This document shows positions 3,792 through 13,983 of a DNA stretch of 36,107 nt, piece after piece. A program made the translations under genes and the position numbers. Each line of letters opens with the position of its first letter. Within the stretch, counting starts at the first letter, position 1. Source of the stretch: a virus (lineage: Duplodnaviria > Heunggongvirae > Uroviricota > Caudoviricetes); IMG/VR virus record IMGVR_UViG_2630968500_000009. The stretch is one strand, 5' to 3'. The notes under the pieces were generated by a model. It did not search any database, had not been told where the DNA came from, and saw only the letters and a program-made list of their open reading frames with translations.

Positions 3792-4007
3792 ATGTCAAAT
3801 AAAATGACTGGTTTAGTAAAATGGTTTAACGCTGATAAAGGTTTCGGCTTTATTTCTCCTGTTGATGGTAGTAAAGATGTGTTTGTGCATTTTTCTGCGA
3901 TTCAGAATGATAATTATCGAACCTTATTTGAAGGTCAAAAGGTTACCTTCTCTATAGAGAGTGGTGCTAAAGGTCCTGCAGCAGCAAATGTCATCATTAC
4001 TGATTAA
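3792..4007 (+). CDS. cspB: Cold-shock protein CspB-like (71 aa)
   Basis: [23 protein letters not shown]...VHFSAI... carries canonical CspA RNP1/RNP2 motifs; long AT-rich 5' leader. Confidence 0.8.
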
Positions 4008-6496: not shown

Positions 6497-6772
6497 GTGG
6501 CTTCTGTTTCTATCAGCTGTCCCTCCTGTTCAGCTACTGACGGGGTGGTGCGTAACGGCAAAAGCACCGCCGGACATCAGCGCTATCTCTGCTCTCACTG
6601 CCGTAAAACATGGCAACTGCAGTTCACTTACACCGCTTCTCAACCCGGTACGCACCAGAAAATCATTGATATGGCCATGAATGGCGTTGGATGCCGGGCA
6701 ACAGCCCGCATTATGGGCGTTGGCCTCAACACGATTTTACGTCACTTAAAAAACTCAGGCCGCAGTCGGTAA
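6497..6772 (+). CDS. insA: IS1 InsA (91 aa)
   Basis: [43 protein letters not shown]... matches IS1 InsA. Confidence 0.9.
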
Positions 6773-7194
6773 CCTCGCGCATACAGCCGGGCAGTGACGT
6801 CATCGTCTGCGCGGAAATGGACGAACAGTGGGGATACGTCGGGGCTAAATCGCGCCAGCGCTGGCTGTTTTACGCGTATGACAGTCTCCGGAAGACGGTT
6901 GTTGCGCACGTATTCGGTGAACGCACTATGGCGACGCTGGGGCGTCTTATGAGCCTGCTGTCACCCTTTGACGTGGTGATATGGATGACGGATGGCTGGC
7001 CGCTGTATGAATCCCGCCTGAAGGGAAAGCTGCACGTAATCAGCAAGCGATATACGCAGCGAATTGAGCGGCATAACCTGAATCTGAGGCAGCACCTGGC
7101 ACGGCTGGGACGGAAGTCGCTGTCGTTCTCAAAATCGGTGGAGCTGCATGACAAAGTCATCGGGCATTATCTGAACATAAAACACTATCAATAA
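6691..7194 (+). CDS. insB: IS1 InsB (167 aa; InsAB' transposase made by -1 frameshift)
   Basis: [25 protein letters not shown]... matches IS1 InsB. Confidence 0.9.
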
Positions 7195-7209
7195 GTTGGA
7201 GTCATTACC

Positions 7210-7218
7210 TGACACGTT
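7210..7218. repeat. IS1 target-site duplication, right copy (TGACACGTT)
   Basis: Direct repeat of 6433-6441. Confidence 0.85.
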
Positions 7219-7455
7219 TTATTAATAAATAAAGCTATTCTTTCATTGCTGTGTTTTTCTTTACAAAAGTAATCCTTGCTATGGGTGGTTAATCATGCGT
7301 TAATGGTGTTCTGGTTTGTTACAAATTTATCTGAAGCAGTCATTGTTATAATTTTATTATTTGTACCTCTTGAGATTTCCTTGTTGGTTTTTCTCTCTGA
7401 TATTTTTTTTCGGACCATTCTGCCCAAGGGCTAATTTCTTCAAAAGGTAATAATT

Positions 7456-7668
7456 ATGTCTAACAAAATGACTGGTTTAGTGAAATGGTTTAACCCTGAA
7501 AAAGGTTTTGGTTTCATCACGCCGAAAGATGGCAGCAAAGATGTGTTTGTCCATTTCTCAGCAATTCAGAGCAACGATTTCAAAACATTAACTGAGAATC
7601 AGGAAGTTGAATTTGGTATTGAGAACGGACCTAAAGGTCCTGCCGCTGTTCATGTAGTGGCGCTTTGA
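7456..7668 (+). CDS. cspI: Cold-shock protein CspI-like (70 aa)
   Basis: [38 protein letters not shown]...; long AT-rich leader; CspA-family motifs. Confidence 0.8.
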
Positions 7669-7873
7669 GGTAGACAATATTACAAACCATATTCACTTTA
7701 GATGCCCGTGTTGTCATGGTTCCCAGTATAGAACATCATCTTTTGATGTTTCTGACATGAATCCTTTCGGGGCAAAATGTATCTTTTGTAAATCAATGAT
7801 GATTACATTTGATAATATTTCACAATACTTAAATGCCAGCCGTCTGTCGTTGGATTTAAAAAAGTGAAAATGA

Positions 7874-7897
7874 AGGCTCCTTCGGGAGCTTTTTTGC
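7874..7897 (+). terminator. Rho-independent terminator
   Basis: AGGCTCC-TTCG-GGAGCT hairpin followed by TTTTT. Confidence 0.45.
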
Positions 7898-7939
7898 TTG
7901 GTGTCTATTCGATGGATACTCACATACTACGGTAACATC

Positions 7940-8170
7940 ATGAAAAAAATCATAGTTTTTTTTAACTCTGAACCAGCAGTGGTAGTGCCAGCGATGACTG
8001 GAGTTAACACCATCATGCGTGAATATCCAAATGGCGAAAAAACACACCTTACTGTAATGGCCGCAGGGTTTCCATCTCTGACCGGAGATCATAAAGTCAT
8101 TTATGTAGCCGCGGATCGACATGTTACTTCAGAAGAAATTCTGGAAGCAGCAATAAGGCTCTTGAGTTGA
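7940..8170 (+). CDS. Hypothetical small protein (76 aa from ATG 7940)
   Basis: ORF between cspI and gnsB; weak SD; start uncertain (the track ORF begins at TTG 7898). Confidence 0.35.
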   Translation: MKKIIVFFNSEPAVVVPAMTGVNTIMREYPNGEKTHLTVMAAGFPSLTGDHKVIYVAADRHVTSEEILEAAIRLLS

Positions 8171-8341
8171 TTTGATGCTATTGCATTGATAATTCAGGAA
8201 AATTCTCTTTGTCTGTTTGTGTAAAATTTAGACTATCGTATGTTGATTATTGCGATGTTTCATCTTATCTTTTACACGTTTGCACCATATAATCGACTTA
8301 CTGTGTAACTGGAAAGTCATAACAGACTAAAAGAGGAAATG

Positions 8342-8515
8342 ATGAATATTGAAAACTTAAAAACAAAAGCAGAAGCAGATATTTCTGAATATATAACAAA
8401 AAAAATTATTGAACTTAAGAAAAAGACCGGGAAAGAAGTTACCAGTATTCAGTTTACCGCACGGGAAAAAATGACGGGTCTTGAAAGCTATGATGTCAAG
8501 ATTAATTTAATCTGA
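8342..8515 (+). CDS. gnsB: GnsA/GnsB-family small protein (57 aa)
   Basis: Hand-translated, below ORF-track cut-off: MNIENLKTKAEADISEYITKKIIELKKKTGKEVTSIQFTAREKMTGLESYDVKINLI; AAGAGGA SD; TATAAT box at 8288-8293. Confidence 0.7.
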   Translation: MNIENLKTKAEADISEYITKKIIELKKKTGKEVTSIQFTAREKMTGLESYDVKINLI

Positions 8516-8666
8516 TGTATTCAATAATAAAATTTATCCATAAACCTCGTTTTTACGGGGTTTTGTTATATTTGAATGGTTCCGAATATCTAAATCACAA
8601 TTGTTGATGGTTTTTATTAAACCAATGCAGTCCGGCTCAGGAGTGAGAGAAGCCGGACGTTATGGT

Positions 8667-9077
8667 TTAGCGTGGTAAGATCTGTGTAGTTTTCTGGATG
8701 CTTTCAGTAAATAGTAATGAATTATCAAAGGTATAGTAATATCTTTTTTGTTCGTGGATATTTGTAACCCACCGAAAAACTCCTGCTTTAGCAAGGTTTC
8801 TTCTGTATTCCTGAAATGTGATCTCTCTGGATTTCAGCTTATTAGAGGTCGTTTCTATAAGATGCCTATCCTTTGAAAATTTGACAGACACAATGTTTTT
8901 TAGGCCCTTTAATAACACTGTATTATCATTTTTTAATACAATATGAACATTCTCTGTGGCTAAATAGTAAATGTAATGTGAGACATTGTGACGTTTTAGC
9001 TCAGAATAAAACCATTGATAGTTTAAATCGTTTCGAACTTTATCAAATATTTGTTTAAAAATGACTACCTGATCCAT
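8667..9077 (-). CDS. ydfO: DUF1398-family prophage protein (136 aa from ATG 9077)
   Basis: ORF antisense to the late operon; GGAAGG SD upstream of the internal ATG; conserved position next to cos. Confidence 0.65.
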
Positions 9078-9134
9078 AGATAAACCTTCCATGTGATATG
9101 AGGGGGCGTAGTCTGCACGATTATCTAAATTGCT

Positions 9135-9368
9135 TCAATCTGGTCTGACCTGTTTTCTGAGCAATTCAGTAATGTCACTCTTTTCTTTGTTTGCTTCAGA
9201 AGAAACTCTTTTTTCTGAGCACAGTCTCCGGCGGCAGGCTTCAATGACCCAGGCTGAGAAATTCCCGGACCCTTTTTGCTCAAGAGCGATGTTAATTTGT
9301 TCAATCATTTGGTTAGGAAAGCGGATGTTGCGGGTTGTTGTTCTGCGGGTTCTGTTCTTCGTTGACAT
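9135..9368 (-). CDS. ynfO: Ribbon-helix-helix-like small DNA-binding protein (77 aa)
   Basis: N-terminal basic stretch then NIRFPNQMIEQINIALEQKG...FSAWVIEA, resembling Arc/CopG RHH folds; immediately upstream of and co-oriented with ydfO. Confidence 0.5.
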   Translation of the reverse strand: MSTKNRTRRTTTRNIRFPNQMIEQINIALEQKGSGNFSAWVIEACRRRLCSEKRVSSEANKEKSDITELLRKQVRPD

Positions 9369-9567
9369 GAGGTTGCCCCGTATTCAGTGTCGCTGATTTG
9401 TATTGTCTGAAGTTGTTTTTACGTTAAGTTGATGCAGATCAATTAATACGATACCTGCGTCATAATTGATTATTTGACGTGGTTTGATGGCCTCCACGCA
9501 CGTTGTGATATGTAGATGATAATCATTATCACTTTACGGGTCCTTTCCGGTGATCCGACAGGTTACG

Positions 9568-9579
9568 GGGCGGCGACCT
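9568..9579 (+). other. cos: cosN cohesive-end site (GGGCGGCGACCT), with cosB-like inverted repeats downstream to about 9750
   Basis: The 12-nt lambda cohesive-end sequence preceded by ...GATCCGACAGGTTACG and followed by CGCGGGTTTTCGCTATTTATGAAAATTTTCCGG, as in the lambda genome ends recalled from memory. Confidence 0.8.
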
Positions 9580-9756
9580 CGCGGGTTTTCGCTATTTATG
9601 AAAATTTTCCGGTTTAAGGCATTTCCGTTCTTCTTCGTCGTAACTTAATGTTTTTATTTAAAATACCCCCTGAAAAGAAAGGAAACGACAGGTGCTGAAA
9701 ACGAGCTTTTGGGCCTCTGTCGTTTCCTTTCTCTGTTTTTGGCCGTGGAATGAACA

Positions 9757-10276
9757 ATGGAAGTCAACAAAAAGCAGCTGGCTGACATTTTCGGTGCGAG
9801 TATCCGTACCATTCAGAACTGGCAGGAGCAGGGAATGCCCGTTCTGCGAGGCGGTGGGAAGGGTAATGAGGTGCTTTATGACTCTGCCGCCGTCATAAAA
9901 TGGTATGCCGAAAGGGATGCTGAAATTGAGAACGAAAAGCTGCGCCGGGAGGTTGAAGAACTGCGACAGGCCAGCGAGGCAGATCTCCAGCCAGGGACTA
10001 TTGAGTACGAACGCCATCGACTTACGCGTGCGCAGGCCGACGCACAGGAGCTGAAAAATGCCAGAGACTCCGCTGAAGTGGTGGAAACTGCATTCTGTAC
10101 TTTCGTGCTGTCGCGGATCGCAGGTGAAATTGCCAGTATTCTCGACGGGATCCCCCTGTCGGTGCAGCGGCGTTTTCCGGAACTGGAAAACCGACATGTT
10201 GATTTCCTGAAACGGGATATCATCAAAGCCATGAACAAAGCAGCCGCGCTGGATGAACTGATACCGGGGTTGCTGA

Positions 10277-10302
<26 letters not shown>
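9757..10302 (+). CDS. nu1: Terminase small subunit Nu1 (181 aa)
   Basis: MEVNKKQLADIFGASIRTIQNWQEQGMPVLRGGGKGNEV... matches lambda Nu1. Confidence 0.9.

Positions 10303-13983
<3,681 letters not shown>

Follow-up and report, generated by a model that had tools for sequence, protein, structure and literature searches.

ynfO and ydfO, two neighboring antisense genes beside cos in a Qin-like lambdoid prophage, and the extent of their pairing

Two antisense genes between the lysis genes and cos

The record IMGVR_UViG_2630968500_000009 of the IMG/VR virus collection (Caudoviricetes; 36,107 nucleotides [nt], the whole of which is called the window here) represents an intact lambdoid prophage, Qin-like in type, whose head and tail operon is complete. 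Close to its cos site lie two open reading frames (ORFs) on the minus strand, which carry the RefSeq names ydfO and ynfO of the Qin prophage (Table 1). Both are already known as catalogued E. coli y-genes, both occur in lambda, and they are ordinary moron-type cargo. We lean, with modest confidence, toward the reading that they are two neighboring, separable accessory genes of a Qin/lambda-like prophage and not an obligate module. The ynfO-ydfO pairing is confined to one mosaic lineage and is not conserved.

The two genes run antisense to the late operon, and the flanking genes are all on the plus strand. One flank holds essD, ydfR, rrrQ, rzpQ, the insertion sequence IS1, cspI, ymcF, ynfR, ynfN, and gnsB; the other holds nu1/nohA, terminase A, and the head genes. 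Alignment puts the right end of lambda (position 48502) at window position 9567, and the ynfO ATG is therefore 199 nt from cosN. The nearby GGGTCCT corresponds to cosQ of the lambda cos site. A first-pass annotation, made from the letters of the window alone, had proposed two minus-strand genes 57 nt apart in this position, between the lysis genes and cos and opposite in direction to the late operon. This description held in full, and neither is a chance ORF, as judged from Pfam, NCBIfam, RefSeq, and the ratio of nonsynonymous to synonymous substitution rates (dN/dS). The same annotation named the slot as the one that bor occupies in lambda, which is correct but incomplete: lambda also carries homologues of both genes.

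The start of ydfO is marked by a Shine-Dalgarno sequence, GGAAGG, 7 nt 5' of the ATG; a longer in-frame ORF of 141 amino acids (aa) from an ATG at 9092 lacks one. The base composition breaks across the locus, with a GC content of 29 to 37% in the ydfO block, 45 to 47% in ynfO, and about 52 to 55% in the terminase genes. The genes thus show the features of morons, being inserted between modules, antisense, and of atypical composition, and the content of the slot differs among phages. A 2.6-kb segment around the two genes has 100% DNA identity to E. coli strain G5; it is also 100% identical in K-12 J53, where the match is broken by an IS4-like insertion, and near-identical segments are present in more than 1,000 complete E. 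coli genomes. The K-12 Qin genes ydfO (b1549; PDB 2HH8) and ynfO (b4533) bear the same names in RefSeq. Unlike the K-12 Qin prophage, which is cut off after nohA, the prophage in the window is intact with its head and tail operon.

Table 1. Features of the ynfO-ydfO locus (window coordinates)
Feature	Coordinates	Strand	Remarks
Hairpin at the ydfO 3' end, overlapping and following the stop codon	8618-8669	minus	-21.9 kcal/mol; z -5.3; 0 of 200 shuffles as stable
ydfO coding sequence	8667-9077	minus	136 aa; DUF1398
ynfO-ydfO spacer	9078-9134	minus	57 nt
ynfO coding sequence	9135-9368	minus	77 aa; DUF3950/YlcI-YnfO
ynfO C-terminal tail, codons 51-77 plus stop (9135-9137)	9135-9218	minus	Lineage-specific; low-confidence helix in AlphaFold2 model
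PdhR-box-like palindrome AACAGGTCAGACCAGAT	9138-9154	minus	ynfO 3' end, upstream of ydfO; lambda and DLP12 keep the same sequence beside their DUF1398 gene
ynfO conserved core, codons 1-50	9219-9368	minus	Basic N-terminal arm, extended NIRFP, helix, G-S-G-N turn, helix; putative ribbon-helix-helix (RHH)-like domain
Lambda-identical segment	9232-9567		100% identical to lambda 48167-48502; covers ynfO core and cosQ
Inverted repeat ATCAATTAATACG-N7-CGTCATAATTGAT	9438-9470		Between cosQ and ynfO, 70-100 nt upstream of ynfO; 85% complementary
cosQ (GGGTCCT)	9538-9544	plus	Identical to lambda 48473-48479
cosN 12-nt cohesive end GGGCGGCGACCT	9568-9579	plus	Lambda right-end alignment reaches 9567

YnfO has a constrained core and an exchangeable tail

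YnfO matched Pfam DUF3950 (PF13132; E value 2.7e-21; 75.6 bits, cutoff 25) and NCBIfam YlcI_YnfO_N (NF041551; 36.6 bits, cutoff 30). Residues 1 to 50 are almost invariant among lambdoid copies and have an isoelectric point (pI) of 11.5. The tail comes in at least six unrelated versions that match whatever DNA is downstream, indicating a mosaic junction at about codon 50 of ynfO. A comparison of 43 distinct core alleles gave a median dN/dS of 0.09, with third codon positions accounting for 494 of the 726 differences. Beside packaging genes of the HNH endonuclease, TerS, and TerL type (BP-4795 and many Shiga toxin [Stx] phages), the homology of ynfO starts exactly at the ATG; the DNA 5' of the gene is unrelated to that of Nu1-type loci and provides a good GAGGA ribosome-binding site. 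With either terminase type, ynfO diverges from the terminase genes in all lambdoid loci. A YnfO subfamily with 35 to 45% identity to the YnfO of the window occurs in Klebsiella, Serratia, Yersinia, Dickeya, Pectobacterium, Xenorhabdus, and others. Its members lie on capsid-forming phage-inducible chromosomal island (cf-PICI) satellites, each as a solitary gene that runs antisense to the alpA-to-primase operon, and a YnfO-family gene has been listed as a cf-PICI accessory gene (PMC13612085). The DLP12 copy is transcribed in K-12, where ybcW and ylcI have been scored as a convergent excludon in 50% or more of the MG1655 RNA-seq data sets (PMC12288877).

These observations speak to whether ynfO is a gene at all. 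The ORF could have been conserved only through its overlap with near-identical cos-flanking DNA, as the complete identity of the segment at 9232 to 9567 to lambda and the lack of an annotation in the lambda RefSeq record would suggest. However, the low dN/dS and the third-position bias already refute this explanation. It is also contradicted by the HNH-terminase phages, in which the flanks are unrelated but the ORF stays conserved from its start to about codon 50, by the 35 to 45% identical homologues across Enterobacterales satellites, and by the transcription of ylcI in K-12, and we regard it as scarcely credible. Because of the dN/dS, the ATG-precise homology, the satellite subfamily, and the constant divergence from the terminase genes, the ynfO core, judged by its pattern of sequence conservation, is a real unit and is not merely conserved cos-flanking DNA.

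The cf-PICIs with a lone YlcI/YnfO gene encode int, alpA, primase, capsid, protease, and portal. Some of these records have a 324-aa ORF called on the opposite strand right across the YlcI/YnfO gene, and one of the two overlapping calls is probably wrong.

The first-pass annotation had described YnfO as RHH-like and had proposed profile searches on both proteins. The searches identified DUF1398 and DUF3950/YlcI_YnfO_N, but the RHH assignment did not reach significance. In the AlphaFold2 monomer model (52-sequence alignment; predicted local distance difference test score, 68), residues 13 to 18 are extended and are followed by a helix (residues 19 to 32), a G-S-G-N turn, and a second helix that starts at residue 37. 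A monomer model gives the strand no partner to pair with, so the intermolecular sheet that defines the RHH fold is not visible there. Across the 52 family members, F37 and S38 of the turn G33-S-G-N-F-S38 and the following W40 are invariant, and N36 is present in at least 90%. By inspection, YnfO has the G-x-S/T/N turn and the alternating hydrophobic residues of the strand, and its N-I-R-F-P...G-x-x-F-S-x-W resembles by eye the F-N-L-R-W-P...G-R-S-x-N-S-E of Arc/Mnt/AmrZ. Weak matches to a HicB-like PHROG and to Pfam HicB_lk and RHH_1 were also obtained. With the RHH proteins (Arc/MetJ/CopG; ParD, MazE7, KacA) YnfO shares a core of about 45 residues arranged as extended segment, helix, G-x-x-S turn, and helix, and like them it has a basic N-terminal arm and an optional C-terminal tail.

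Single-sequence and profile searches of the PDB with YnfO found no homologous solved structure. In a profile-profile comparison of the YnfO family with Arc/Mnt/AmrZ, whose sequences were verified against the PDB, only the strand and helix A were aligned, with a probability of 9%. The divergent satellite subfamily (ARVPHE...GESTGQF), used as a bridge, gave no RHH Pfam match. The turn and strand pattern and the modeled helices are compatible with the RHH-like call, whereas no sequence, profile, or structure match to known RHH proteins was significant, and the assignment of YnfO as an RHH protein is plausible but unproven. Unlike the RHH antitoxins, to which its similarity is nonsignificant, YnfO has no conserved toxin partner.

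YdfO is a DUF1398 protein with an orphan fold

The first-pass annotation had called the ydfO product a DUF1398 protein, and this was confirmed by a match to Pfam PF07166 over profile positions 1 to 119 of 119 (E value, 1.7e-46; 157.5 bits, cutoff 22). YdfO is the protein of nuclear magnetic resonance (NMR) structure 2HH8 except for one residue and has its duplicated alpha2-beta3 fold. It is a soluble alpha/beta protein in which an alpha-alpha-beta-beta-beta unit is duplicated internally, neither a signal peptide nor a membrane segment was found, and the fold is an orphan. The conserved positions of the family concentrate in the motifs Y-Y-x-x-x-x-T-x-N and L-A-x-A-G-V-F-K/R-W, and the dN/dS of ydfO against lambda p78 is 0.18, indicating purifying selection. 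Nucleic-acid binding, as might be read from the charge of YdfO (pI 9.75), was rejected because the pI of the DUF1398 family spans 5.8 to 9.7. A match to parafibromin was attributed to chance. The labels "head protein" (PHROG 413 and the lambda RefSeq record) and "putative envelope protein" for DUF1398 are unsupported for a soluble protein that has no signal peptide and whose lambda homologue, lambdap78, is non-essential.

With phmmer, an exhaustive search among 1.84 billion representative proteins yielded only 200 DUF1398 clusters, many of them fragments. When one genome per species was scanned, the true family proved to be limited to the Enterobacteriaceae, with Escherichia, Shigella, Citrobacter, Klebsiella, Kluyvera, Pseudocitrobacter, Raoultella, and Salmonella diarizonae as hosts. 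Occurrences in other taxa were rejected as contamination with lambda DNA. Right-end DNA of lambda was seen in unrelated assemblies, among them a 3,566-bp "plasmid unnamed1" of Arcanobacterium hippocoleae (CP136411), contigs of Brevibacillus, Cohnella, Pedobacter, Flavobacterium, and Kitasatospora, and hundreds of noisy contigs of about 3.5 kb in the ENA. Such deposits most likely come from the 3.6-kb lambda control DNA of nanopore sequencing or from a lambda spike-in.

Published expression data point to stress. ydfO was upregulated 116-fold with the ionic liquid [C2mim]Cl in a study that called it a gene "of unknown function" (PMC4077768); overexpression of ydfO is also cited there, second-hand, as increasing resistance to oxidative stress. 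The mRNA levels of ybcV, the DLP12 paralogue, and ybcW were about 10-fold lower in a pdhR deletion (PMC7660256). They rose more than 1,000-fold on overexpression of T4 MotB (PMC7827196), a protein that the title of that paper ties to H-NS-dependent repression, and they also rose after induction of a DNase toxin (PMC12607911). Knockdown of lambdap78 by CRISPR interference (CRISPRi) left the plating of lambda unaffected, indicating that the gene is non-essential (PMC10695390). ycgX, ybcV, and ydfO are recognized paralogues located in the bluR/ycgZ island and in prophages (PMC3509220).

The literature searched assigned no function to DUF1398 or DUF3950, in line with the first-pass annotation. The prophage that carries ydfO can be deleted. 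The listing of ydfO as an "essential" E. coli protein and proposed drug target (PMC8229198) is implausible for such a gene and may be a transposon-insertion artifact of a short AT-rich gene.

The pairing of ynfO and ydfO is confined to one lineage

We examined the pairing from both sides. For DUF1398, a YnfO-family ORF was sought within 6 kb of about 30 divergent loci (YcgX-type and types of 25 to 38% identity, including those of Klebsiella, Kluyvera, Citrobacter, and Salmonella), and none was found. The neighbors of these loci, identified by reading ORF translations and not by a family scan, were varied: diguanylate cyclase, carbonic anhydrase, icd, ttcA/dbpA, and YmgA-like and BhsA-like small stress proteins. 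For YnfO, four IMG/VR scans yielded 289 unique loci, a query-biased sample in which class sizes are not frequencies. A DUF1398 gene lay downstream in 98 of the 99 unique loci with the Qin-type tail (CSEKRVS...RPD), and the spacing was 56 to 57 nt in 93 of these 98. It was downstream in none of the loci with the INEKYSQF tail (58 unique loci), the Stx/BP-4795 tail (AADIKYAR; 25), the ATDATH tail (13), or the lambda-like tail (4), and in none of those with satellite YnfO (31) or divergent satellite YnfO (48). The sole Qin-type exception has an IS5 transposase in place of ydfO directly after an intact ynfO. Across 5,426 complete E. coli genomes, ynfO core DNA was counted at 8,362 places, with as many as 12 in one genome, and ydfO-like DNA at 3,876.

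The first-pass annotation had likened the layout to a two-gene toxin-antitoxin or phage-exclusion module. Under such a reading the genes would be a type II toxin-antitoxin-like or abortive-infection/exclusion pair in which the YnfO tail neutralizes YdfO. The order of a small RHH-like protein upstream of a larger protein of no assigned function would fit, as would the near-perfect association of the Qin-type tail with DUF1398, the weak HicB-like PHROG/Pfam matches, and the structural neighbors of YnfO, of which the top-ranked, although nonsignificant, were the RHH antitoxins ParD2, MazE7, and KacA with their toxin-binding tails. However, physical linkage explains the co-occurrence of tail and DUF1398, as an interaction between the tail and YdfO also would. 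DUF1398 is intact in the roughly 30 loci without YnfO, and it is intact and under purifying selection in lambda and DLP12 despite another YnfO tail and an intervening gene on the opposite strand. Each gene is widespread without the other, unlike the paired conservation of type II toxin-antitoxin systems. The loss pattern also runs the wrong way, in that the sole decayed locus lost ydfO and kept ynfO, and no locus had the reverse pattern expected of an addiction module. Neither protein matched a PADLOC-DB v2 family at E values up to 1 (0 families) or, above noise, any Pfam family of toxins or antitoxins. For structure 2HH8, recombinant His-tagged YdfO was used and the entry includes no YnfO; the overexpression of YdfO is reported as protective in the citation carried by PMC4077768. 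We consider a toxin-antitoxin or exclusion pair very unlikely, and the module proposed at first was not borne out.

Lambda and DLP12 carry both genes in a different arrangement

A tblastn search of 50,697 phage records found YdfO homologues in 43 and YnfO homologues in 152. The DUF1398 protein of lambda is lambdap78 (47045 to 47452, minus strand; 79% identical to YdfO), and the YnfO homologue is an unannotated ylcI-like ORF of NC_001416 (48109 to 48303, minus strand; 98% identity over 54 residues). Lambda and the window share identical DNA between about codon 46 of ynfO and cosN. In lambda and in DLP12 (ybcV-ybcW-ylcI), about 560 additional bp, which include an opposite-strand gene (lambdap79/ybcW), separate the DUF1398 gene from ylcI, and the last 17 nt of the Qin-type ynfO (AGGTCAGACCAGATTGA) persist beside the DUF1398 gene. 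The slot is the same, between bor/Rz and cos, and YlcI of lambda and DLP12 has 64 aa with a tail different from that of the Qin-type YnfO. With this opposite-strand gene in between, the two genes do not form an operon in either lambda or DLP12.

The lambda RefSeq record has no coding sequence for the ylcI/ynfO homologue 199 bp from its right end, despite the strongly constrained core. lambdap78 is annotated there with an extended start (177 aa), and homology favors 136 aa.

ynfO and ydfO resemble the lambda morons bor and lom, which are accessory genes between essential modules; bor is likewise antisense to the late operon. AT richness is a further shared trait, as are, according to the literature, dispensability for lytic growth (in the case of lambdap78) and transcription from the prophage, with ydfO, ybcV, and ylcI transcripts seen in K-12. 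Bor and Lom are envelope proteins with known phenotypes, whereas YdfO has no signal peptide or membrane segment, and unlike at bor and lom no clear promoter/terminator pair was found at ynfO/ydfO. The DUF1398 paralogue ycgX lies in the stress island iraM-ycgX-bluR-ycgZ-ymgA-ariR (PMC3509220). Like the genes of small stress connectors and anti-adaptors, DUF1398 genes are AT-rich and stress-induced, a resemblance drawn from context only.

Candidate regulatory signals of the two genes

The hairpin at the end of ydfO (Table 1) is terminator-like but lacks a U-tract on the minus strand. The fold of the ynfO-ydfO spacer did not differ from shuffled sequences (z -0.45), and no terminator was found in it; with no significant structure in the spacer, read-through from ynfO is possible. 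A consensus scan of 8300 to 9800 found no sigma-70 promoter for either gene. A relaxed scan gave weak candidates only, among them a GATAAT resembling a -10 element at 9120 to 9125 upstream of ydfO, with a -35 region that overlaps the PdhR-type palindrome. A genomic SELEX (gSELEX) peak and a PdhR box have been reported for K-12 ynfO/ydfO and for ybcV/ybcW (PMC7660256).

The inverted repeat upstream of ynfO is identical in lambda (48373 to 48405). It is kept with few changes in all Nu1-type loci examined and is absent from the HNH/BP-4795-type loci. We know of no function assigned to it; it could be a lineage-specific operator/promoter element or a feature of the cos flank.

Together with the spacing of the genes, these signals raise the possibility of a dedicated regulator-effector operon, in which YnfO would bind its own operator and control a bicistronic ynfO-ydfO transcript, with YdfO as a nontoxic effector. 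The co-orientation and constant 56- to 57-nt spacing, the spacer without a terminator, the inverted repeat upstream of ynfO, and the RHH-like core of YnfO are consistent with such an operon. However, ydfO-type genes have no ynfO upstream in lambda, DLP12, and all divergent loci, and in the window ydfO is immediately preceded by a regulatory box of its own and a -10-like element. The GC break suggests different origins of the two genes, and the reports of ydfO induction are silent on ynfO. We consider this arrangement unlikely, although it is the rival to which we give the most weight.

Interpretation

Our preferred reading, that of two separable accessory genes, assigns each gene its own role. 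The YnfO core is self-contained and strongly constrained and would most likely be a dimeric RHH-like DNA-binding domain; it is carried by a lone antisense gene at the cos- and terminase-proximal end of lambdoid right arms and in cf-PICIs. The gene would be transcribed from the prophage, even a cryptic one, and its product would most likely be a small regulator of transcription that acts on its own promoter region at least, with a dispensable tail set by the mosaic junction at about codon 50. YdfO is a soluble cytoplasmic protein of orphan, internally duplicated fold. Its gene would have its own upstream regulatory region, including the PdhR-type box, with little expression in unstressed cells and strong induction under stress. 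The protein would be non-essential for phage growth and not toxic, and it would most likely tune host stress physiology through a host partner.

Several observations weigh against this reading. The Qin-type genes are co-oriented at nearly constant spacing with no terminator between them, and so co-transcription and control of ydfO by YnfO are possible; the Qin-type tail and DUF1398 co-occur almost perfectly; and the consensus scan gave neither gene a promoter of its own. On the protein side, YnfO lacks a significant match to known RHH proteins, its top-ranked structural neighbors are antitoxins, and the stress phenotype of YdfO comes at second hand, through a work cited in PMC4077768.

The position of ynfO also allows a link to packaging. 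YnfO might be a DNA-binding protein expressed in the lysogen that guards or modulates the cos/terminase region, for instance through the silencing of stray transcription into nu1/A or HNH-TerS or a part in packaging conflicts between phage and satellite, with YdfO as unrelated cargo. In lambdoid loci with either terminase type, the gene always points away from the terminase genes, its core is strongly conserved, and it occurs in cf-PICIs that have their own capsid, portal, and protease genes and for which TerS and TerL are also listed (PMC13612085). However, the two terminase types have unrelated DNA upstream of the gene, which leaves no shared target beside it, and the cf-PICI gene is in the alpA-primase region, away from the packaging genes. 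The minimal cos function of lambda is not known to need the ylcI ORF. Taken together, the packaging reading appears improbable. A broader speculation, which we also hold to be rather doubtful, is that the YlcI/YnfO core is a near-universal small RHH-type regulator expressed in lysogens that controls a process shared by lambdoid phages and cf-PICIs, such as the silencing of packaging genes or of cos cutting in the prophage, or helper-satellite conflict, and that the tail acquired in the Qin lineage might in addition bind YdfO.

The finding itself adds little, these being catalogued genes of E. coli and lambda, and the toxin-antitoxin/exclusion reading is not borne out; under the preferred reading of two separable genes, ynfO and ydfO are better studied apart. 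DUF1398 is a narrow orphan fold restricted to the Enterobacteriaceae and found in stress/biofilm islets and moron slots. What interest remains attaches to the YlcI/YnfO core, which is conserved as a lone antisense gene next to two packaging systems and in cf-PICIs, and to its absence from the lambda RefSeq annotation. Even in lambda, the phage studied best, a 64-codon gene under strong constraint beside cos is unannotated. A phenotype for either gene would fill a minor gap both in the E. coli y-ome and in the gene map of lambda.

Neighboring genes

The accessory region between the lysis genes and cos also holds an IS1 with a programmed-frameshift transposase (6497 to 7194), between rzpQ and cspI. 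It is followed by an AT-rich block (7200 to 9100), a run of small genes that includes cspI, ymcF, ynfR, ynfN, and gnsB. An Rfam scan of 7000 to 10400 found nothing in ynfO or ydfO; the sole match was the cspA thermoregulator (RF01766; 112.8 bits) at 7310 to 7695, covering the cspI 5' leader and coding region. gnsB (8339 to 8515), which converges on ydfO, matches the Pfam family "GnsA/GnsB toxin of bacterial toxin-antitoxin system" (E value, 3.3e-35). A toxin label in this neighborhood, if any, belongs to gnsB and not to ydfO.

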